From the IMG/VR virus record IMGVR_UViG_3300045988_109438: a DNA stretch of 64,000 nt; one strand, given 5' to 3'. Below are positions 4,412 to 39,506 of the stretch, piece after piece. The translations under genes were made by a program, and so were the position numbers. The stretch is from a virus. A model generated the notes under the pieces. That model was not told the origin of the DNA, did not search any database, and worked only from the letters and a program-made list of their open reading frames with translations. How positions within the stretch are numbered: the first letter of the stretch is position 1; each line of letters opens with the position of its first letter.

Positions 4412-6670
4412 ATGGGTGTCAAATGTCAGATAGAAAAGAAGGAAAATAAAATAGAACGGGTTGAGGCTCCTAACGGTGAGCCTTCCGTTCTTTACGAAAG
4501 TGCTTTAAAAGTATTAGGAAACAGCGAGCGGGCTCTTCAGGTATGGGCTAAGGCTTACACTCCTGGTTTTTTGTCGTATTACGGTCATTGGAATAACCCG
4601 GCTCCAGGGGAGATGTTTAATACCGATCCTAATGGCGAACCTCTTTTAGAAGATGTGCTGTCGTATATGAAGCGTCAGGCTTATTTTTCCGATCCCTTAA
4701 CGGCTCAGGACATTAAGGATGTAAGGGATTTCCTTTTGTCTACTCATTATTTTTTCAATGCGTCTTCATTGTCTAATGCTATTCTCTTCGATTTTTATGT
4801 AGATGGCAGTTTGATACTGAATGAGCAGAAATTAAGGAGATCTGGTTTGTATGATGAAACAGAAATAAGTCGTATTTTATCCGATCCTTCTGTTTTAAAC
4901 GAGGTTTCGACTTCCATGAGAAAGTTAATAGATTCTTCTATTAACGAACATGATAGGGAAAAAGATAATTATTTTATGTCTATTGACTATCAGTATGGTC
5001 CTATTGTTTACAAGGAGGGAGTGTTTAACCAATTTGGTAAAAAGGTACCATATAATCCTTCTGAGCTTTATTATGCTATGCGTAAAACAGTAGCCGGCAT
5101 AAAAAACTTTTCTGAATTTTCATCTGCTTTTGAATCGTTGAGAAATTCATATCCTGAACTGGTTGAGAAATTCGTTTCTGATAAAGAATTTGCCGAATCT
5201 ATGTTTGATGAGTTCTCATCTACGAATAAGATTCCGGTAATAAACATAGAAGGGGATGATGTGGTAGAAGGCGAGAGAAGATCCTTGTCTAAGCTACAAG
5301 ATCTGTCTTATTACAATCCCGGCAAAATAGAGTTCCTAAGAGCTCGTATATCAGCTTATTTACATAGGGCTAATGCCGACACCGAATCCGATTTAAGAAG
5401 CATGATATGGGATATAGAAGAGGCTTGTACGTGGTTTGGCATAGATATAATAGGGACATCGGAAACTTATGATGGCACAGAAGAATCTTTGAATAAGATA
5501 GATAATTTGATGCTGGATCTTGATATTTATGTGGCCAGGCATAATGATGTAAATTATGCTCCAACGCTGGCATCTTCTATAGATGATGTTCTTGGTGATA
5601 GCACAGATTATTATTTTGGATTATTACCGGAGTATATGGATAATTTGAATATCGTTTATTCTGAATCCGATATAGACCCAGTAGAAGCGTTTGAGAAACA
5701 TTCATTGCTTAAGGTAGGAGATAATCTATATCAAAGGATCAGCAAAGATGATCTTAACGAGATGTATCAAATATCAACAGTGTTAGCCAAGCACAACCTA
5801 ACTCATTTTTCTACTAAAATATATCCTGAATCTTGTTTTAAGAACGGCGTTTTGGATAAAGAGAAAGTACGGAACGTAGATAATAATACGCTCATGGATT
5901 CCATTAAAAAATACGTCAGATCGTTCATGGATTCTCAGAACACGGAGGACATGATAATGACCAGGATGGCGTTTGGACACCCGGCGGTACTTGACGTTCC
6001 TTACGTGGATGTGGATCGGGAGTATAGTCGATACATGAACAAAAAACAAGATAGCGAAAACCCATTATCCTTATTCGATTTATACCAATCTTACCTTGAC
6101 AACAAACTCCATAAAACAAAATTATATGATAATGCCTATAAGTATCTTGACTTCAAACCTGGTCCATCTTTGGGCCTTATTTCTGATGATCCTGATATTT
6201 TGAAATCAATAGAATTATCTTTATCTGGAAAAGACAGGTTGATGTTGTTTGATTATAGCATGACCAGTACCGACCCTTCTTTATCAGAATTGTTTTATTT
6301 GGAGAAGTATGACTCTTCGTATGCCGGGAATGATTTTGAACACTATTTTTACACCAGGCACCCGTATCTGTTAAAAGAAAAATCGGGCCCTAATATCGTA
6401 GAGCAAGATGGTGTTATAACAGCCGAAGGTATTTATGATAATTTTATAAGAGTAGGTAATAAGATATGGTCTAAAGTAAGCGAGAGTAGTTCCGGCTCTA
6501 TCTACCAAAATCTGACAGGAACCGAATCGGAGGTGAAATACGATTCTACTCAGAAGGCTAAGACGGTAGAAACCGATTACGCTCCATACCAAAACAGATC
6601 TGGCTTGACGCAAGACATGACCGTAAGCAAGTCTGAATTGGATGACCTTAACAAATTAGAATGCAGGTAA
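4412..6670 (+). CDS. large hypothetical protein (752 aa), probable virion-associated
   Basis: Long uninterrupted ORF, same strand/operon as giant genes. Confidence 0.55.
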   Translation: MGVKCQIEKKENKIERVEAPNGEPSVLYESALKVLGNSERALQVWAKAYTPGFLSYYGHWNNPAPGEMFNTDPNGEPLLEDVLSYMKRQAYFSDPLTAQDIKDVRDFLLSTHYFFNASSLSNAILFDFYVDGSLILNEQKLRRSGLYDETEISRILSDPSVLNEVSTSMRKLIDSSINEHDREKDNYFMSIDYQYGPIVYKEGVFNQFGKKVPYNPSELYYAMRKTVAGIKNFSEFSSAFESLRNSYPELVEKFVSDKEFAESMFDEFSSTNKIPVINIEGDDVVEGERRSLSKLQDLSYYNPGKIEFLRARISAYLHRANADTESDLRSMIWDIEEACTWFGIDIIGTSETYDGTEESLNKIDNLMLDLDIYVARHNDVNYAPTLASSIDDVLGDSTDYYFGLLPEYMDNLNIVYSESDIDPVEAFEKHSLLKVGDNLYQRISKDDLNEMYQISTVLAKHNLTHFSTKIYPESCFKNGVLDKEKVRNVDNNTLMDSIKKYVRSFMDSQNTEDMIMTRMAFGHPAVLDVPYVDVDREYSRYMNKKQDSENPLSLFDLYQSYLDNKLHKTKLYDNAYKYLDFKPGPSLGLISDDPDILKSIELSLSGKDRLMLFDYSMTSTDPSLSELFYLEKYDSSYAGNDFEHYFYTRHPYLLKEKSGPNIVEQDGVITAEGIYDNFIRVGNKIWSKVSESSSGSIYQNLTGTESEVKYDSTQKAKTVETDYAPYQNRSGLTQDMTVSKSELDDLNKLECR

Positions 6671-7357
6671 TTTTTGTATATATATATAGTTTTTTCATAG
6701 TTATAATTTGGGAAGTGAGGCTTGTGAAAGTCTCACTTTTCTCATATATATACGTATATCAATAACATATAAGAAAAGTTAGATTTTCATTGTTTATGGA
6801 TTATTTTTGTTAAGTTTGCGATATTAGTTTCAGGAAGGGATTATGGGAATAAGGAAAAAGTAAGAACCGAACGTAACTAATAACAGTAGGAAATGAGAAT
6901 CAGTACCATCAAACGTAACAACAGCATTCATCTTATGTATAAAAACATTATGAATGATTTAGGTCAATTAAGAACTGTAGTTTCAAAATCCTATATTTAT
7001 AATCTGATACAAAATCAAACCGGATTAAGTATCAGAACTATATCCCATGTCTTGAATCACACAAAAGAACAGGATACAGATTCTTTGTGAAAAGCATACA
7101 TTTTCATACATTTGTGTGTTCTTTAGTTTTTAGATTTAAGTTTTTCATGGTATTAGTTTAGATTAGTGTAGATCAGGGTTCGCAGTGATGCGGGCCCTGG
7201 TTTGATTTAAAAAGTATTAAAATATTTGCTATTTAAGATCCTGTTCCTATCTTTGTTCCAGAAACAATGAACAACGAGATCCCGCCTCTGGTTGTTTGAT
7301 GTTGAAAGATATTTTTGGCTCATTAGGGTTTGTCATAGTGGGATCTGACATTCTCTT

Positions 7358-7555
7358 TTGGGCCTATTTTTTTTTATTATGTGTAATAGTATTATTTTAA
7401 AATTAGAAGATATATCTTCTATCAAGAGGTATTTTGAGTTTATCTTGTCTCAAACAGAAAAAGGCGAAAAGTTTCCCATTAAACTTGATGATGTTTTCGC
7501 TCTTGTGTATAGTAGAAAGGATAAGGCCGTTAGAGCACTTATAGATAGCGATTAA
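7358..7555 (+). CDS. N-terminal fragment of Bro-N/Rha-like antirepressor domain, terminated by TAA in-frame with downstream ORF
   Basis: Sequence ...KLDDVFALVYSRKDKAVRALIDSD continues in same frame after a single TAA into ...DYKVFPLNGG...YMLSVS; the Bro-N/Rha-type DNA-binding domain appears to span the stop. Confidence 0.35.
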   Translation: MGLFFFIMCNSIILKLEDISSIKRYFEFILSQTEKGEKFPIKLDDVFALVYSRKDKAVRALIDSD

Positions 7556-32663: not shown

Positions 32664-32833
32664 TGGACTCCCTTTAAGTAGTTAAACCATATATCCTCCA
32701 GCTTCTCCTGAAGCTCAAATGCTTTCTTAAAATTCCCGCATCTTACAGCAACGTCTCTCATGTATGTCAAGTTTATAACTTCCGGATCTTGCCGGTATTT
32801 TGTTCTTAACTTTTGAACATCCTCGTATTTCAT
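32660..32833 (-). CDS. 57-aa ORF (MKYEDVQKLRTKYRQDPEVINLTYMRDVAVRCGNFKKAFELQEKLEDIWFNYLKGVQ), not in ORF track (<60 aa)
   Basis: Fills 166-nt gap; ATGA overlap with downstream gene start. Confidence 0.3.
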   Translation of the reverse strand: MKYEDVQKLRTKYRQDPEVINLTYMRDVAVRCGNFKKAFELQEKLEDIWFNYLKGVQ

Positions 32834-33849
32834 CGCTTTATCTTTTTAGACGGATCCCAATCTGAAGAGAAAGGGCATTCGTTTTTGTTATGTAATCCAA
32901 AGTCACAATAATAACACAGTGCCGACGGGCAGGGTAGCTTGTTTTGCGAAACAGGCTGGCTTAGGGTGGCACGCCGCTTGCTATACCTGGCTCCTTCTGC
33001 TCCCTGGATGTACGCTTGAAATGATTTTACACTATTATCTTCAAAATCATACATTTTAGATAAAGTGTCATTTAGCATCTCTATAGATTTTGTTTTACGT
33101 TCCTCATCCACCTTAACCTTTTGGTACTGCCTGGTTCTGGTAAAGAAATAGATGTTCATATCTGGTAGAACCCCACCATATTTTCTATAGATGTAAAACG
33201 AATATATAGGATGCTGTAAATTCGTTTCCAACTTCTTAGAATCAAAAACCTTATTCCCTGATTTCCAATCTATGACATAATGGTGAATTACGTTCTTGCT
33301 CTTTATAGCCAGATGAAGGTCTACTGATCCTACTATGTACACATGGGTATGAATTACCCCATTTATGTCAACTGGCTTAGGAAGGCGGTACGGTAGCACA
33401 AAATCTTCTTCGACTCCAACTATAGCGCCGTGTCTGATAAGTTTCTCACAAGGATTAAGATCACTATCAGCTATCATAAACCTATTGCCGTCTTTTTTAA
33501 ACAGATCCACAATCCAAGCAAGAAGCTCCCCAGATTGTTTCATGGCTATCATCATATTTTCCGGTGATTGCCAAGGTATGTCTTCTTGGTAAGCATAGTA
33601 ACTTATTGCTTCTCCAAGGTCTTTGCCAGAAGGCTGCCTTCCGTTCTTGAAGAAGTATTCCAGTGTCTTATGAATAACCGTACCATAAGACGTAGCTTCT
33701 TGTTTTTCTGTAGACCTTTTGCCCTCTACGTAAGTCTTATACCATTTCATTGGACAAGTAAGAAACGTATCTATCTGGGAATAAGAAATGGCAAGACGTT
33801 TCACACCATTAAACTCCTTATATAGCAAATGCGTTTCCGGGACCATCAT
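32830..33849 (-). CDS. PD-(D/E)XK nuclease, Cas4/RecB-like with C-terminal Cys cluster
   Basis: GSVDLH...VIDWKSGNK (D...D/ExK-like with KSG), C-terminal CPSALCYYCDF...C cysteines typical of Cas4-type Fe-S nucleases. Confidence 0.7.
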   Translation of the reverse strand: MMVPETHLLYKEFNGVKRLAISYSQIDTFLTCPMKWYKTYVEGKRSTEKQEATSYGTVIHKTLEYFFKNGRQPSGKDLGEAISYYAYQEDIPWQSPENMMIAMKQSGELLAWIVDLFKKDGNRFMIADSDLNPCEKLIRHGAIVGVEEDFVLPYRLPKPVDINGVIHTHVYIVGSVDLHLAIKSKNVIHHYVIDWKSGNKVFDSKKLETNLQHPIYSFYIYRKYGGVLPDMNIYFFTRTRQYQKVKVDEERKTKSIEMLNDTLSKMYDFEDNSVKSFQAYIQGAEGARYSKRRATLSQPVSQNKLPCPSALCYYCDFGLHNKNECPFSSDWDPSKKIKR

Positions 33850-34205
33850 AAGCTATCGTCTTTAAATCCTTCTGGGTAATATACAACATATTTCTTGCCA
33901 TCCTCCGGCGTCATGGCGAATTGCATGTAGTTATTACGATTACGATGTTTGCCATCCAATCCTCGTTTCCAATACAGTATCCCGTCTATATCCACATAAG
34001 ATCGGCCTCGGTCGGCTCTAACTACGTCCGTGTGCAGCAGATACCCGTCGGAAGACACGATCCACACTTTATCCCCTTTGTTTAAATAGGATATTCTTTT
34101 TCTTACAACAACCTTTTTCTTATTATCTAATGCAAATTCCTCATCAGTCATACTCTTCATCCTCCTCTTCTTCTGTTTCAAAATCAATTCCATAACACTG
34201 ATCAT
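33846..34205 (-). CDS. hypothetical protein
   Basis: ORF. Confidence 0.45.
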   Translation of the reverse strand: MISVMELILKQKKRRMKSMTDEEFALDNKKKVVVRKRISYLNKGDKVWIVSSDGYLLHTDVVRADRGRSYVDIDGILYWKRGLDGKHRNRNNYMQFAMTPEDGKKYVVYYPEGFKDDSL

Positions 34206-34358
34206 AATGCTTGGTCAGTTCTTCTGGTTCTAAATCTTGTCCAAAATCCATGTTAAAAATATTGTAATTAGTAAAGCACTGTCCCTGCCGGCAGGAAATC
34301 TATAAATGCTGCTTTTGCTTCTTCAATTAGGCCCAAGTGTAACCTTGGGCCATTGTAT

Positions 34359-36059
34359 TTATTTTTTGTCATCTCCTTTTAACTTCTTTAAAGTATCTGC
34401 AATCGGAAGCTGATCAATGATTCCCAATGCCGGAGCAACGGCCTTAACAACATTGTTAAGGAAATTACCGGTGCTGTTCTGACCGCCGTCAAATACCGTG
34501 ATATTTCCGAGATTGATGTGCTCGAACGCCTTAACCTGTTCTCCAGCAATTTCTTTCCACTGATTAACCATCTTGTACTGGATGGCGATCTGAGGATTGG
34601 ATTCTGCTGCTTCCACCATAGCCTTAAATCCGTCGGCTTCTGCCATCAACGACTTTTTCTTACCTTCGGCTTCCGCTTCCAGCTTCATCTGAATAGCTTT
34701 TGCTTCCGCCTCTGCTTTTGCCAAATGTGCTGCTGCTTCAGCATCGGCCCGGCGTTTGATCTTCTCGGCCTCGGCATCAGCTTGCAACATAGCCTCCTGC
34801 TTCTGAATTTCAGCCGGCACAATCTTTTCAGCTTTAAGCGCAGCTTGAACCTTCTTAGCTTTAGCTTCTTCCACTTCTTTATCAGCAAGCTCTTTTGCCG
34901 TTTTCACAGCCGCTTCCGATTTAACTTTCTCTTCTCCGGCTTTCTTTTCTGATTGAGCTTTGATAACCTGCAATTCTGATTCTGATACAGCAACCTCTTT
35001 CTGGGCATTGTTGTAGCCTACAGAAGCATTTTTCTCAGCCTCAGCTTTCTTAATCTGAGCTTCAGAGTCTTGTATTGCTATAGCTGCTTGTTTGTCAGCT
35101 TCAGCTTTATTCTTTCCAACTTCTTCCATTCTTTCGGCTTCAGCTTTGTTTACTTCAAGTTCCGCCTTAGATCTTGCAATCGCTGATTCCTTGTCAGCCA
35201 AAGTCTTTGCTATAGCCGCAGCCCTATCTCTATCGGCTTGAGCTACACCGATCTGTTTTTCTTTATCGGTTAAAGCCAAAGCTACTTCTTTTTCTTTCTT
35301 TGTTTCAGCTACTACCGTTTCTTTTTCTTTTTCAGTATAGGCAATTTGAATCTCTTGCTCTTTTTGGGTATTAGCTACAGCCGTTTCTTTTTCCTTCTGT
35401 TGTACAGCAATCTTAATAGCACCCAGCTTTTCCTGTTCTTCGATATTAGCCTGTGCTTCGTTCAGAGCCTTGCTTTCAGCCTCTTTACCAAGATTCATGA
35501 TGTAGCCGGCTTCATCTCTGATGTCACTGATGTTAATGTTCAAAAGATAAAGACCCAATTTATTAAGTTCGTTATCAATGTTTTTTCTTGCCTTATCCAA
35601 AAACTCATCCCTATCAGAATTAAGTTTTTCGATTGTCATTTCGGCAATAATCAAACGCATCTGACCGTAAACGATGTCTGTAATAAGATTTTCAGTAGAT
35701 TCGGTATCCATCCCCAAAAGTCTTTCTGCTGCATTTTGCATGATTTCAGGATTTGTACTGATAGCTACTGTAATAGTTGTAGGCACATCTACTCTAATAT
35801 TCTGAGATGACAAAGCACCGGTAAGCCTACAATCTATTTGCATAGGCTCCATAGATAAAATATCATAGCTTTGGATAATAGGCAACACGAATGCTGCTCC
35901 ACCATGATATAATTTCGCCGATTTCTTCTCTCCACCTGTCTTACCATAAACGACCAAGACCTGATTAGGCTTACATCTACGATACCTTGATAAGACTCCG
36001 ATGATTGTCAAAATAATCACTACAGCTAAGATGGCCGACACGTACATAATTGTTGTCAT
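34359..36059 (-). CDS. flotillin-like SPFH/band-7 protein
   Basis: N-terminal TM helix, SPFH domain, long AEAEK/KAEAE flotillin-repeat coiled coil. Confidence 0.8.
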   Translation of the reverse strand: MTTIMYVSAILAVVIILTIIGVLSRYRRCKPNQVLVVYGKTGGEKKSAKLYHGGAAFVLPIIQSYDILSMEPMQIDCRLTGALSSQNIRVDVPTTITVAISTNPEIMQNAAERLLGMDTESTENLITDIVYGQMRLIIAEMTIEKLNSDRDEFLDKARKNIDNELNKLGLYLLNINISDIRDEAGYIMNLGKEAESKALNEAQANIEEQEKLGAIKIAVQQKEKETAVANTQKEQEIQIAYTEKEKETVVAETKKEKEVALALTDKEKQIGVAQADRDRAAAIAKTLADKESAIARSKAELEVNKAEAERMEEVGKNKAEADKQAAIAIQDSEAQIKKAEAEKNASVGYNNAQKEVAVSESELQVIKAQSEKKAGEEKVKSEAAVKTAKELADKEVEEAKAKKVQAALKAEKIVPAEIQKQEAMLQADAEAEKIKRRADAEAAAHLAKAEAEAKAIQMKLEAEAEGKKKSLMAEADGFKAMVEAAESNPQIAIQYKMVNQWKEIAGEQVKAFEHINLGNITVFDGGQNSTGNFLNNVVKAVAPALGIIDQLPIADTLKKLKGDDKK

Positions 36060-36090
36060 AACTTTTAAAATTTAATTGTTGATAAAAAAA

Positions 36091-36585
36091 TTAGATAATT
36101 AATTCTCCTTCTTCGTATTTTATATTCACCTTGTCACCGTTTTTGTAAGTTTTTCCAGACAAGCATCTTACTCTCATTTGCTCCTGTCTTCCATTTTTCG
36201 AAATATTTACCATATAATGATTCTTCCCTGATCTAAACACTATCTCCACCTCTCTGCCATTTAAATCTTCCGGACATTCGTACACCATTTCTTGCTTTAA
36301 CTTAAGAAGTAACTTATATACGTAAAACAAAACGATAAAGAAAAACGACCCTATCACAACCCCTACTAAATGGGAACCCGAAAAGTAGGTAGTCCAGCTA
36401 TATCCAAGAATAAAATGTGTTATGCCCTTGAATGATATGATGTCCGACAAAGACATACTTAAATCAGAAGCATCATCAATATCAATATCCGTATCCAGAT
36501 CAGATCCTAATATCGACAACAAAAACTGTATAACAAAAGCAAATGACGCTATTAAAGCCATGCATAAAATTATGTCACTTCCCAT
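36091..36585 (-). CDS. NfeD-like membrane protein (short form, C-terminal OB-fold)
   Basis: TM helices + C-terminal GREVEIVFRSGKNHYMVNISKNGRQEQMRVRCLSGKTYKNGDKVNIKYEEGELII; immediately upstream of flotillin as in bacterial nfeD-floT operons. Confidence 0.65.
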   Translation of the reverse strand: MGSDIILCMALIASFAFVIQFLLSILGSDLDTDIDIDDASDLSMSLSDIISFKGITHFILGYSWTTYFSGSHLVGVVIGSFFFIVLFYVYKLLLKLKQEMVYECPEDLNGREVEIVFRSGKNHYMVNISKNGRQEQMRVRCLSGKTYKNGDKVNIKYEEGELII

Positions 36586-36826
36586 ATCCTTCTGTTATTA
36601 TTTTGTAAACAAGATCAGTCATATCTTTGATGGTCTCCATATCATAATCATTAATAACAATATTGAATTTTTGTTCCACCATCATTTCCAGTTCAATTTG
36701 ATCGATAGAATCTAATCCAAGTTCTTTAAACGTCACATCTTCTTCATGAACTATATCTATTTCCGAATTAAGAAACTGAGTAATAATTATATCCTCTATT
36801 ATCTTTCTGATTCTTACTTTTTCCAT
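36575..36826 (-). CDS. acyl carrier protein-like (83 aa)
   Basis: LGLDSIDQIELEMMVE - DSx phosphopantetheine-attachment motif, acidic helical protein of ACP size. Confidence 0.6.
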   Translation of the reverse strand: MEKVRIRKIIEDIIITQFLNSEIDIVHEEDVTFKELGLDSIDQIELEMMVEQKFNIVINDYDMETIKDMTDLVYKIITEGYGK

Positions 36827-37527
36827 TGCTTTCTAATTTTGTTAAATAAATACGTTTTTATGTTTTTCAATCGCTCTTTGTCTGTTTCAGAACTTCCGGT
36901 AAACAAATAATCCGGATTGCCTTTAGCCGGCGGCGTAGGCAATTTAGATACGGCAAACAACCAATCCATTTCCTTATTCTTCTTAAACTCCAAATAAGGC
37001 TCGGTAGCGATCTTAAATTTTTCAGCTATTAAGTCAAAGAGCTTTGAATTTTTAAGGTTCATATGGACCGAAAAGGCCTGAGAAGGCGGTTTCCATATGA
37101 AGTTACATAAGCTCATTGTATAATCTCCTGACTCTGCTATATAAGATTCCGTTACCTGAAGTATGACCTCTTTCTTGAATGAGGTGTTACCCATAAACCA
37201 ACACAACCTGGATTCCGCTTCTTTTCTGCTGACACCTATGTCTTTTGAATACGATTCGTACATTCCTATCATAATCTTCAACGTTTCCAGAACCTCGTCT
37301 GTCATCTCCGGTGTCTCTATATAATTCACAAAAGACGTTCCTTTGTTGGTCAATCTCATCACGCCTGATTTTAATTTCTCAACCAGGCCAAGCTCTATAT
37401 ACCTCCCAGCATCTTTTTCCAGCATGGCTTCGATCATAACCGTATCCTTCTGTCTTATAGCAAGAAGATTAGCCAGATCATTAGGAGTCATGTCTGATGC
37501 TGCAAGTTGTCTGAAATTGATGTACAT
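36814..37527 (-). CDS. hypothetical protein
   Basis: ORF. Confidence 0.45.
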   Translation of the reverse strand: MYINFRQLAASDMTPNDLANLLAIRQKDTVMIEAMLEKDAGRYIELGLVEKLKSGVMRLTNKGTSFVNYIETPEMTDEVLETLKIMIGMYESYSKDIGVSRKEAESRLCWFMGNTSFKKEVILQVTESYIAESGDYTMSLCNFIWKPPSQAFSVHMNLKNSKLFDLIAEKFKIATEPYLEFKKNKEMDWLFAVSKLPTPPAKGNPDYLFTGSSETDKERLKNIKTYLFNKIRKQWKK

Positions 37528-37754: not shown

Positions 37755-38357
37755 TTAACTGTTGTACCCTTCTTTGATAATCGAATTTCTACCGGTAGAC
37801 ACCGACTGACGGAGATCATCATGTACAGAATCTACCGTAGAATACTTGTTTCTGGTTGTAAAAATAACTTCCAGCATCTCCTTGTAATCACCTAAAGCCA
37901 CTTCGTATCTTGGATCCACTTTGGCTTTTCTTTCAGCCTCGGCATTACTTTTAGCCAGCTCTCGGTCGAGAAGGTCTTCTTTGATCCGGTCAGCAATCAT
38001 ATCAAGTTCTTTTTTTATAACTTCTCCTGCTGCCCGAAGTTGACCTTCTACGTCGCCAAGCTGATCTTGGACGGTTCCTATTTCTTTCTTTAGGCGATCG
38101 TATTCGTTAATCATACCCATATCACCTGCATAGCCGGAAAAGTCCTTGATTATTCTGGTTCCTTCTTTAAGGAGTTCAATAACTCGTCTTTTACGTTCTC
38201 TGCTTATTAAAGACGGAAGACGATAATTCATATCCGCCACCGCCTTATCATGTATGGAGTTGATTAAAAACATCTCTCTTTCATCCCCTGCAAACTCAGT
38301 AAGAACCAAAAGGAACTTACTTATCAGGTATTCGTTTTCTTCTACTGTTAGTCTCAT
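37755..38357 (-). CDS. hypothetical coiled-coil protein
   Basis: ORF. Confidence 0.45.
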   Translation of the reverse strand: MRLTVEENEYLISKFLLVLTEFAGDEREMFLINSIHDKAVADMNYRLPSLISRERKRRVIELLKEGTRIIKDFSGYAGDMGMINEYDRLKKEIGTVQDQLGDVEGQLRAAGEVIKKELDMIADRIKEDLLDRELAKSNAEAERKAKVDPRYEVALGDYKEMLEVIFTTRNKYSTVDSVHDDLRQSVSTGRNSIIKEGYNS

Positions 38358-38372
38358 GGTTCTTATTTTTTT

Positions 38373-39506
38373 TTAATACAATGACTGTTCTTCCTTTGTC
38401 TCTTGTTCTTGATCTTGATTGTTCGTAACGTCTTCCACAGTATAGAGCTTGGGCGGCGTCGGCGGCTGGTTGGGGTTCACGAACTTCGTCCCGCCCTCCC
38501 CGTACATCCATCCATGTCCCGGCAGTATCTCTGGGTGGATTGTATTAGTAAGCTCTTCCATACTAACTTGCCTTACCTTCAGTATATGATGAAACACCAG
38601 TCCGGCTGTCCTGAATGATGTTTTGTTTTCAGTTTTAAACCTATCAAGAGTCTGATACCAATCTTTCCCAAATATCATATACTTATCCAGCCCGTACCTA
38701 CGAGGATTGTGCAAGCCTATCATTAACGTACATAACTGACCCAGCGTATCAGACTGGTAAAAATCAGAAAGACGCGGAGGCTGCTCTTGTGGGCTTTTTA
38801 TCCTTCCTTCTATTTCTCTGTTGAATTGGGATATGATGAGGAAAAATATGTTTTTATATACTAATTTAGCTTCGTTCATAACCGCCACCAAATCATCTAT
38901 AGCCGACTTAGGATCTAATCCCATTCTTTTTATCAAAGCAATATGATCGACTTTAAATATTATAAGACGTTTGTCTTTATGTTTGGTAGCTATATGATAC
39001 ACAGCCGCCTCAAACTCTTTTACCGTACACGGAGCATCGATGTATATTATATTATTTCTGATTTCACCTTGAAGGATTTCAAACATCCTCATCTCTTCTA
39101 CTGTATTAGAATCTTGCCTTCTTAATATTTCAGGAGCCCGCTTTTTCATATCCTGGCTCATTCTGCGAAGAAGAAGATCTTGAGGATTCATTTCGAACTC
39201 GCAATTAACAAGAAAATAATCTTCTGCTTGCGGGTTGATCATCGGATTCATCACATTTTCCAATATCTTTTGGGCCACATACGATTTACCTACAGATGGC
39301 CGGGCTCCTATGGCAATAGCATGCTGAGGGAAAATACCTCCAAGCAAAGCCTCATCAATATAATCGTATCCGGTTTTAGCGGGGATAAGCTCTCCCCGCC
39401 TGTATTTCAAGATATTCTCATACGCCTCTTCCATAACTTGTTTAGAGGTCTTGAATATCCTTCTTATATCTATCCTATTTGCTATCTCCTCTTGCATTTT
39501 TGTCAC
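38373..39506 (-). CDS. DnaB-like replicative helicase (RecA-fold C-terminal domain)
   Basis: Walker A GARPSVGKS, Walker B region, ISQFNRE (SQLNR-like) motif. Confidence 0.75.
   Translation of the reverse strand: MTKMQEEIANRIDIRRIFKTSKQVMEEAYENILKYRRGELIPAKTGYDYIDEALLGGIFPQHAIAIGARPSVGKSYVAQKILENVMNPMINPQAEDYFLVNCEFEMNPQDLLLRRMSQDMKKRAPEILRRQDSNTVEEMRMFEILQGEIRNNIIYIDAPCTVKEFEAAVYHIATKHKDKRLIIFKVDHIALIKRMGLDPKSAIDDLVAVMNEAKLVYKNIFFLIISQFNREIEGRIKSPQEQPPRLSDFYQSDTLGQLCTLMIGLHNPRRYGLDKYMIFGKDWYQTLDRFKTENKTSFRTAGLVFHHILKVRQVSMEELTNTIHPEILPGHGWMYGEGGTKFVNPNQPPTPPKLYTVEDVTNNQDQEQETKEEQSLY

Follow-up and report, generated by a model that had tools for sequence, protein, structure and literature searches.

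A host-type flotillin and its NfeD-like partner in a variable cargo slot of a human-gut phage lineage

A flotillin and two small upstream genes lie within a phage replication block

The virus record IMGVR_UViG_3300045988_109438 (IMG/VR) was analysed over a stretch of 64,000 nt, hereafter the window, whose coordinates are used throughout; L-numbers denote related loci that were compared with it. On its minus strand the window carries three open reading frames (ORFs) in succession, 36826..36575 (83 aa), 36585..36091 (164 aa) and 36059..34359 (566 aa), which an original prediction made from the sequence had described as an acyl carrier protein (ACP)-NfeD-flotillin operon embedded in a replication module. 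The coordinates and the 11-nt overlap between the first two ORFs given there agree exactly with the ORF list, and a gap of 31 nt separates the second ORF from the third. The three genes are as follows.

36575..36826, minus strand: ACP-like gene, 83 aa, isoelectric point (pI) 4.3, with Ser40 in LGLDSID; Pfam PP-binding.
36091..36585, minus strand: NfeD-like flotillin partner, 164 aa, with three predicted membrane helices, an acidic DxDxDxD loop, an SFKGxxHF motif and a C-terminal OB-type beta-barrel.
34359..36059, minus strand: flotillin, 566 aa, with an N-terminal hydrophobic anchor, an SPFH/Band_7 domain, a long Glu/Ala/Lys-rich coiled coil and a C-terminal Flot domain.

Pfam assigns the flanking genes to a DnaB_C helicase upstream (38373..39506) and a PD-(D/E)XK nuclease downstream (32830..33849). 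The placement of the cluster between a DnaB-like helicase and a nuclease was thus right, with several small genes intervening: three ORFs on the helicase side and one or two on the nuclease side.

The flotillin call, for which a profile check had been proposed, holds. Both the SPFH/Band_7 domain (Pfam PF01145, E 2.5e-25, 90 bits against a cut-off of 23.6, residues 30-211) and the Flot domain (PF15975, E 3.9e-9, 37.1 bits against a cut-off of 27, residues 450-559) score above the curated cut-offs. By direct reading, residues ~212-449 are rich in Glu, Ala and Lys, and a tandem repeat search of the gene found weak short repeats only, in keeping with a coiled coil. Anchoring of the protein in the membrane is predicted from just one feature, the hydrophobic stretch at the N-terminus (residues ~5-24). 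The closest relatives in the PDB are human flotillin-2 (E 6e-23) and flotillin-1 (E 5.5e-18), with the stomatin-like QmcA at just E 4e-4, and by these comparisons the phage protein is a flotillin and stands further from stomatin, HflK/C and prohibitin. Its score with the NCBIfam FloT model (NF058507) was 146.6 bits, to be compared with an equivalog cut-off of 700 bits, which places it in the flotillin family and not among FloT equivalogs.

The partner protein is NfeD-like in predicted fold

Assignment of the middle gene to NfeD stood as regards fold, membrane topology and gene position, and failed in the sequence profiles, in which it differs from the flotillin and ACP assignments. Pfam NfeD (PF01957) left the window partner unmatched at E<=10, NCBIfam gave no match for it, and PHROGs matched neither it nor the flotillin. 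Seven Bacteroidales homologues and the homologue from a second phage lineage were likewise unmatched by Pfam NfeD at E<=1. When 1.84 billion cluster representatives were searched with a profile, a partner family of ~160-180-aa proteins emerged, with 414 matches at E<=0.001; two of 72 full-length members match Pfam NfeD (best E 6e-5), and the family profile aligned with the soluble domain of YuaF at E 0.27, the alignment covering the whole OB domain.

In the AlphaFold model of the partner (mean pLDDT 73.6, 80-88 in the C-terminal domain), three membrane helices are followed by a small beta-barrel. The helices (residues 2-25, 52-69 and 72-101) coincide with segments that are hydrophobic in the sequence, no dedicated topology predictor having been used, and the barrel is a five-stranded C-terminal OB-type barrel of the NfeD kind. 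The top Foldseek match of the model is YbbJ (8z5g), the NfeD subunit of the E. coli QmcA-YbbJ cage (E 7e-3, 119 columns), and the best structural matches are the NfeD domains 3cp0 and 3wwv, YuaF (2k14) and YbbJ. The gene precedes an SPFH gene in an operon arrangement, with the 31-nt gap in the window and in the same order in 78/80 Bacteroidales loci and in phages L090 and L092. Given negative Pfam, NCBIfam and PHROG searches and an NfeD-like model, we therefore call the partner NfeD-like by predicted fold, topology and operon position, and not a demonstrated member of PF01957. The ~165-aa Bacteroidales partner is a Pfam-orphan family (414 cluster representatives) that deserves its own family model linked to NfeD.

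Several residues of the partner are near-invariant (window numbering): D33 and D37 in the DxDxDxD loop, and S51, K53, G54, H57 and F58 in SFKGxxHF.

The type of both proteins bears on the idea that a phage SPFH cage encloses or regulates a host membrane protease and so sets protein stability, as HflK/C does with FtsH. FtsH of E. coli is under the control of SPFH cages, and HflK/C affects the choice of phage lambda between lysis and lysogeny. Some NfeD proteins are themselves proteases that act on their own SPFH partner (PMC13086221), which also counts for such a role. However, the phage scaffold resembles flotillin-1 and -2 best and is not of the HflK/C or stomatin type, QmcA matching only at the E value given above, and its partner is a short form that lacks a protease domain. 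We consider protease control quite improbable.

The gene pair resembles a Bacteroidales chromosomal operon

Flotillins 50-61% identical to that of the phage (BLASTP) sit in ordinary bacterial chromosomal contexts, and in metagenome contigs a Pfam-orphan 165-aa ORF, 37-39% identical to the phage partner, lies directly upstream of them. A survey of one genome per species gave 80 loci from Bacteroides, Parabacteroides, Phocaeicola, Prevotella, Leyella and their relatives. In 78/80 of these Bacteroidales loci a partner homologue is located just upstream of the flotillin gene on the same strand, mostly with a gap of ~20-30 nt. The likeness to bacterial operons claimed in the original prediction can thus be made more precise, in that the phage pair copies an operon of the host order. 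The Bacteroidales chromosomal operon, for example that of B. thetaiotaomicron (locus L116), has the same genes, order, strand, short gap and flotillin architecture, and its partner has the same ~165-aa length, acidic DxDxDxD loop, SFKGxxHF motif and C-terminal LVGR...GD...YYI beta domain. The settings differ: replication genes surround the phage pair, which follows an ACP-like gene, and housekeeping genes surround the Bacteroidales pair, which has no ACP.

The phage copies have diverged considerably. Identity of the phage flotillin to every named Bacteroidales host flotillin is 66-69%, compared with 74-95% among the hosts themselves, and for the partner the identity to host proteins is 31-42%; flotillin and partner of the phages each form their own long branch apart from the host sequences. 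Divergence is uneven along the flotillin, with the SPFH domain 79-82% and the C-terminal Flot domain 83-84% identical to the hosts and the coiled coil drifted to 50-56%. Of 319 positions invariant in 28 host sequences, 269 are kept and 30 are changed in both phage lineages. These data indicate that the two-gene operon was acquired as a whole from a Bacteroidales-type donor, either long ago or with fast evolution since, and that the capture was not recent.

The pair occupies a variable cargo slot

Relatives at graded distance were traced through a conserved 237-aa protein encoded upstream of the ACP-like gene. Two backbone genes mark the edges of the region compared.

36814..37527, minus strand: conserved 237-aa backbone protein, upstream edge of the variable cargo slot; homologues 36-99% identical, used for tracing relatives.
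33846..34205, minus strand: conserved 115/119-aa backbone protein, upstream of the PD-(D/E)XK nuclease, downstream edge of the slot; intact in 80/80 relatives.

The phage csAssE-Sib (GenBank OR575929.1, 151,256 bp, human gut, Russia) is 95.3% identical in nucleotide sequence over 8 kb around the cluster and has the same gene order. It carries essentially the same module, annotated as 'acyl carrier protein', 'transmembrane protein' and 'flotillin family protein'; the partner is not labelled NfeD-like there. In a second lineage, represented by L090 and L091 (flotillin 82% identical), the ACP-partner-flotillin order and the 11-nt overlap are as in the window, and L092 is a variant with a 481-aa flotillin (6001-7446) that has an 85-aa in-frame deletion in the coiled coil and is otherwise 97% identical. 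More distant loci are different. L093 and L178, whose 237-aa proteins are 57-60% identical, have an ACP-like gene, a DNA methylase and two radical-SAM genes with no flotillin pair, and in L094, L176, L177 and L095 the slot holds neither the ACP nor the flotillin pair. The synteny check proposed for the cluster thus found it conserved in two phage lineages, as would not be seen after a recent capture, and absent from more distant relatives. The content between the 237-aa gene and the 115/119-aa and nuclease genes differs from phage to phage, and this interval is therefore a variable cargo slot, to which the flotillin pair appears to have been added in one subclade, the ACP-like gene probably being the older occupant.

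Flotillin forms of 533-597 aa also occur in public assemblies, the length of the coiled coil varying by in-frame deletions. If the protein forms a cage, cage height may differ between strains.

The lineage itself is widespread in the human gut, with thousands of member sequences in public assemblies. IMG/VR holds 161 contigs with this flotillin type, and the best 80 comprise 79 of this lineage and one 96% B. thetaiotaomicron-like fragment. In a capsid search the nearest cultured relatives were the Cellulophaga phages phi17:2 and phi4:1 (34%). A crAss-like assignment, suggested by the product names 'ring' and 'muzzle' in the GenBank record, was dropped on this result, and we make no claim of membership in Crassvirales.

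The variability of the slot speaks to a possible hijacking or remodelling role, in which the phage flotillin would co-assemble with host flotillin or displace it and so put membrane microdomains to a new use. As the original prediction had proposed, it might tether replication or assembly complexes to the membrane, or bring about superinfection exclusion by keeping out the DNA of a second phage. Such a role would fit the position of the module, which lies within the replication gene block and on its strand, as well as the pattern of divergence, with host-like SPFH and C-terminal oligomerisation regions next to a strongly diverged coiled coil and termini. The 30 host-invariant positions changed in both phage lineages also count for it, and the long branch fits a new function. 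However, the slot of relatives holds methylase and radical-SAM genes, or no flotillin or ACP at all, within replication modules that are otherwise alike; replication therefore proceeds without need of the flotillin module. Flotillin-less variants, described below, persist across many samples, none of the replication and structural proteins showed a recognisable feature for flotillin binding, and PADLOC matched none of the ACP-like, NfeD-like and flotillin proteins to a defence system. We regard hijacking as possible though unlikely.

The ACP-like gene appears to be separate from the pair

The ACP call with a canonical phosphopantetheine Ser was borne out. The 83-aa protein matches Pfam PP-binding (PF00550) at E 9.4e-8 with 32.6 bits against a cut-off of 20.8, as well as PHROG 5934 'acyl carrier protein' (E 1.7e-10) and 89 solved ACPs in the PDB at E<0.01, with LGLDSID aligned on GFDSID of the T. 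maritima ACP; the NCBIfam ACP models all score under their cut-offs (best 37 against 71). Conservation of the Ser depends on the lineage. It is kept in those that bear the flotillin, as LGLDS[VIL]D in 78/79 close relatives and also in L090. The ACP-like proteins of the flotillin-less phages L093 (6675-6938) and L178 (5675-5938) pass Pfam PP-binding but read GFDDLD, with Asp replacing the phosphopantetheine Ser. This substitution suggests a carrier-independent role for the ACP-like fold in those two phages.

The grouping of all three genes into one unit, in contrast, did not survive comparison. No ACP homologue is found within 4 kb of the flotillin gene in any of the 80 Bacteroidales loci, L093 and L178 have an ACP-like gene without the flotillin pair, and the full trio occurs only in the window lineage and in L090/L091. 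Between these two flotillin-bearing lineages the ACP-like protein is 39% identical, with a ratio of nonsynonymous to synonymous substitution rates (dN/dS) of 0.2-0.3. On this evidence the ACP-like gene is probably an evolutionarily separate, fast-evolving resident of the slot that was there before the pair.

The three genes could still form one pathway if a holo-ACP brought in an acyl or lipid group with which the scaffold, or the membrane lipids around it, became modified. The 11-nt ACP/partner overlap is common to both flotillin-bearing lineages, Ser40 is retained there, and it is the ACP-like genes of both flotillin-less lineages that carry Asp in its place. However, gene overlaps are frequent across this compact block, host flotillin operons do without a nearby ACP, and L093 and L178 hold the ACP-like gene in the same slot without flotillin. 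The ACP also evolves several-fold faster than the pair (39% compared with 82% identity; dN/dS 0.2-0.3 compared with 0.05). Finally, in the whole 151-kb csAssE-Sib record no phosphopantetheinyl transferase, acyltransferase or fatty-acid synthesis gene is annotated, a result at the level of annotation, and host enzymes could serve. A common pathway is, in our judgement, highly doubtful.

The flotillin gene is under purifying selection and is naturally lost

Comparison of the window with csAssE-Sib and with L090 gave dN/dS values for flotillin of 0.044 and 0.057, respectively. In the comparison with csAssE-Sib the values were 0.096 for the partner, 0.32 for the ACP and 0.04-0.06 for DnaB, nuclease and helicase. 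The flotillin of the window is 82.5% identical to that of L090, and the core replication genes are 76-84% identical.

Gene loss was assessed in 80 near-identical IMG/VR genomes (L006-L085), which had been picked as best matches to the partner protein, so that intactness of the partner in this set is uninformative. Flotillin is full-length in 60/80 and deleted or broken in 17/80, with nine clean deletions, three other partial deletions and five split ORFs. The clean deletions remove flotillin alone, from just past the partner stop codon to ~100 nt beyond the flotillin stop codon; their ends lie at A/T-rich microhomology, and two junction types were seen. DnaB, the 237-aa protein, the 119-aa protein and the nuclease are intact in 78-80/80 of the same genomes. 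In public assemblies (Logan, ENA) we also detected several different in-frame fusions of the partner N-terminus to the flotillin C-terminus, one of them confirmed in two independent ENA contigs (L261 and L262) with an otherwise colinear context. A gene that appears to be selected when present yet dispensable shows the pattern of a conditionally useful accessory gene.

We also noted that the synonymous divergence (dS) of flotillin between the window and csAssE-Sib is 0.36, two- to sixfold that of neighbouring genes (0.06-0.17), a hint that alleles recombine or are exchanged at the flotillin locus.

Frequent loss or breakage, together with the variability of the slot, is what one would expect if the module were a neutral passenger, or captured host DNA in decay, and did nothing for the phage. 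However, the dN/dS of 0.04-0.06 is level with that of essential neighbours, and the pair has persisted from a time before two lineages, now ~20% apart in core proteins, separated. Retention of 269 of the 319 host-invariant positions in both lineages and of the full-length gene in 60 of the 80 genomes likewise argues against decay, and we judge a passenger without function to be very improbable.

A second way to account for both patterns is a phage-specific membrane device, the pair having ceased to be a spare copy of what the host has. The phage flotillin may build a cage that shields the inner membrane from membrane-disrupting abortive-infection effectors or from premature lysis, or that excludes competing phages. 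If presence of the gene tracked the defences of the host strains or the competitor landscape, this would explain strong purifying selection plus recurrent clean deletions. We consider a device of this kind unlikely.

Possible role of the gene pair

With somewhat better than even confidence, we favour the reading that the pair is a host-derived, Bacteroidales-type operon of an NfeD-like protein and a FloT/YqiK-type flotillin, carried as selected but dispensable cargo that boosts host flotillin function. In S. aureus, unfolded proteins in membrane microdomains are stabilised by FloA-NfeD in a manner that needs no ATP, with NfeD keeping the flotillin oligomer stable (PMC11222466). Cages built from SPFH-NfeD pairs have been described in E. 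coli by Tan et al. (2024; cited in PMC13086221).

By analogy, the pair would probably be made together with the co-directional replication genes, a timing that we infer from gene order and strand. The flotillin would enter the host inner membrane by its N-terminal hydrophobic segment. Its SPFH and Flot domains, which have stayed host-like, would then let it oligomerise, either by itself or in mixture with host flotillin, and the assembly would be stabilised by the NfeD-like OB-fold partner to give an SPFH-NfeD scaffold similar to that of the host. Such an assembly would supply or boost host flotillin function at a time of stress for the infected cell: membrane proteins would be stabilised without ATP, the order and fluidity of the membrane would be maintained, and the membrane would stay energised and working during phage replication. 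A physiological benefit that depended on the host or on conditions would explain why flotillin-less variants circulate.

Four points weigh against this reading. Frequent natural loss means that the benefit is at most conditional. The phage copy has diverged far beyond the range seen between hosts, which could reflect a changed function rather than simple augmentation. The assignment of the phage to a Bacteroidales host is drawn from gene similarity only. Lastly, scans of the window for sigma-70-type promoters and for terminators gave matches at chance level, and the Bacteroidetes -33/-7 pattern gave 4 matches against 2.3 expected, with zero near the cluster. With no promoter signal of either type standing out near the cluster, timing can be read from gene order and strand only.

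Relation to known systems

The closest known system is the Bacteroidales chromosomal operon, and by function the pair classes with yuaF-floT of B. subtilis, nfeD-floA of S. aureus and yqiJ-yqiK and ybbJ-qmcA of E. coli. These operons likewise encode a short-form NfeD protein (helices followed by a C-terminal OB fold) together with an SPFH scaffold, but the phage partner has no significant Pfam NfeD match and the phage flotillin falls below the FloT equivalog cut-off. Among phages, the unrelated, cultured Vibrio phage KIT04 (Demerecviridae) has an annotated full-length flotillin of 473 aa (27.8% identical), encoded directly after a small multi-pass membrane protein. The upstream protein in KIT04, however, has 82 aa and no OB domain, and there is no ACP; since the phage family and the host phylum are different, the KIT04 flotillin most likely represents an independent acquisition. 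The ACP-like protein resembles phage ACPs (PHROG 5934; g153 of Yersinia jumbo phage fHe-Yen9-04) in being a small acidic PP-binding protein with a DS(L/I)D motif from a large phage. It differs in that no partner enzymes are annotated in the csAssE-Sib record and that sister lineages have lost the Ser.

The novelty attached to the cluster in the original prediction was overstated at the level of annotation, given that flotillin and ACP are already annotated in OR575929.1 (95% identical) and a flotillin in KIT04. Our literature search found no study of the phage-encoded flotillins of csAssE-Sib or KIT04, and none on csAssE-Sib itself. A paper on phage Perkons that mentions flotillin many times concerns integration into host floA and not a phage-encoded flotillin. 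What is new here is the natural knockout series and the newly delineated family of flotillin partners in Bacteroidota, which is a Pfam orphan and NfeD-like in fold. Nearly all bacteria have flotillin/NfeD scaffolds, whose physiological role is still debated. That a phage keeps a diverged copy of its own, selected as strongly as its replication genes, suggests that flotillin function matters in Bacteroidales infection, and the naturally flotillin-minus, otherwise near-identical genomes offer a ready comparison for the effect of flotillin on the virus and on the infected cell.

A hairpin, a small ORF and other features of the locus

Two further features lie at the 3´ end of the flotillin gene.

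34330..34351, minus strand: hairpin with a perfect 8-bp G+C-rich stem, GGCCCAAG-N6-CTTGGGCC, beginning 7 nt past the flotillin stop codon; predicted -17.4 kcal/mol.
34268..34372, minus strand: small ORF of 34 aa spanning the flotillin stop codon and the hairpin; coding status uncertain.

The hairpin that had been noted after the cluster is real, though it is located at 34330..34351 instead of 34322..34343, and its stem has 8 bp, not 9, because a ninth pair would be G:A. It is the sole perfect 8-bp hairpin with at least six G/C per arm in the window, and in L090, the 82%-identity lineage, the stem is kept by a compensatory change from A-U to G-C (GGCCCAGG/CCTGGGCC). On the minus strand the hairpin is followed by TAATTGAAGAAG, a tail with no T-run, and it is thus no canonical intrinsic (Rho-independent) terminator for the operon. 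The terminator scan matched the plus strand only, and the number of matches equalled the expectation from shuffled sequence. Two independent deletions, both among the three partial ones in flotillin, terminate at or within the hairpin.

The small ORF has 34 aa in the window and in 22/80 relatives because of a 10-nt deletion between AGTG repeats. It has 50 aa with a hydrophobic tail in 38/80 relatives, a 52-aa counterpart is called in L090, and csAssE-Sib annotates it as hypothetical. It may encode a small membrane protein, or be no gene.

Scans of the window with Rfam at the gathering threshold and for tRNAs found none. A PADLOC match of the neighbouring 237-aa protein to LmuC (E 0.002) was weak and was disregarded. 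The whole OR575929.1 record (L002-L005) has an annotated diversity-generating retroelement (reverse transcriptase, TR/VR, IMH) that targets a putative tail fibre gene, and further carries two TnpB genes, six tRNAs and a Ro60-related protein, none of which is in the window stretch examined.

The true start of the 115/119-aa protein is probably the ATG at 34193. Its homologue in L023 begins MELILKQ, and L176 and L177 have related ORFs ahead of the nuclease. Between DnaB and the 237-aa gene, a 200-aa ORF (37755-38357) has a form of 249-251 aa in 22/80 relatives, probably through an alternative upstream start or an N-terminal extension.

Finally, about a dozen of the 80 near-identical relatives have an insertion of ~355-360 nt between the flotillin module and the 115-aa gene, at the equivalent of window position ~34193. 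The carriers are L023 (8403-8647), L029, L038, L044, L049, L053, L057, L061, L066, L067, L073 and L084, and the window is without it. No IscB-sized ORF lies beside the insertion in L023. The L023 insertion matches the Rfam HEARO RNA, an IscB-associated RNA (RF02033), with 95.2 bits against a gathering score of 83 (E 4e-20), and it appears to be a solo HEARO/omega-RNA element that makes use of this intergenic site.

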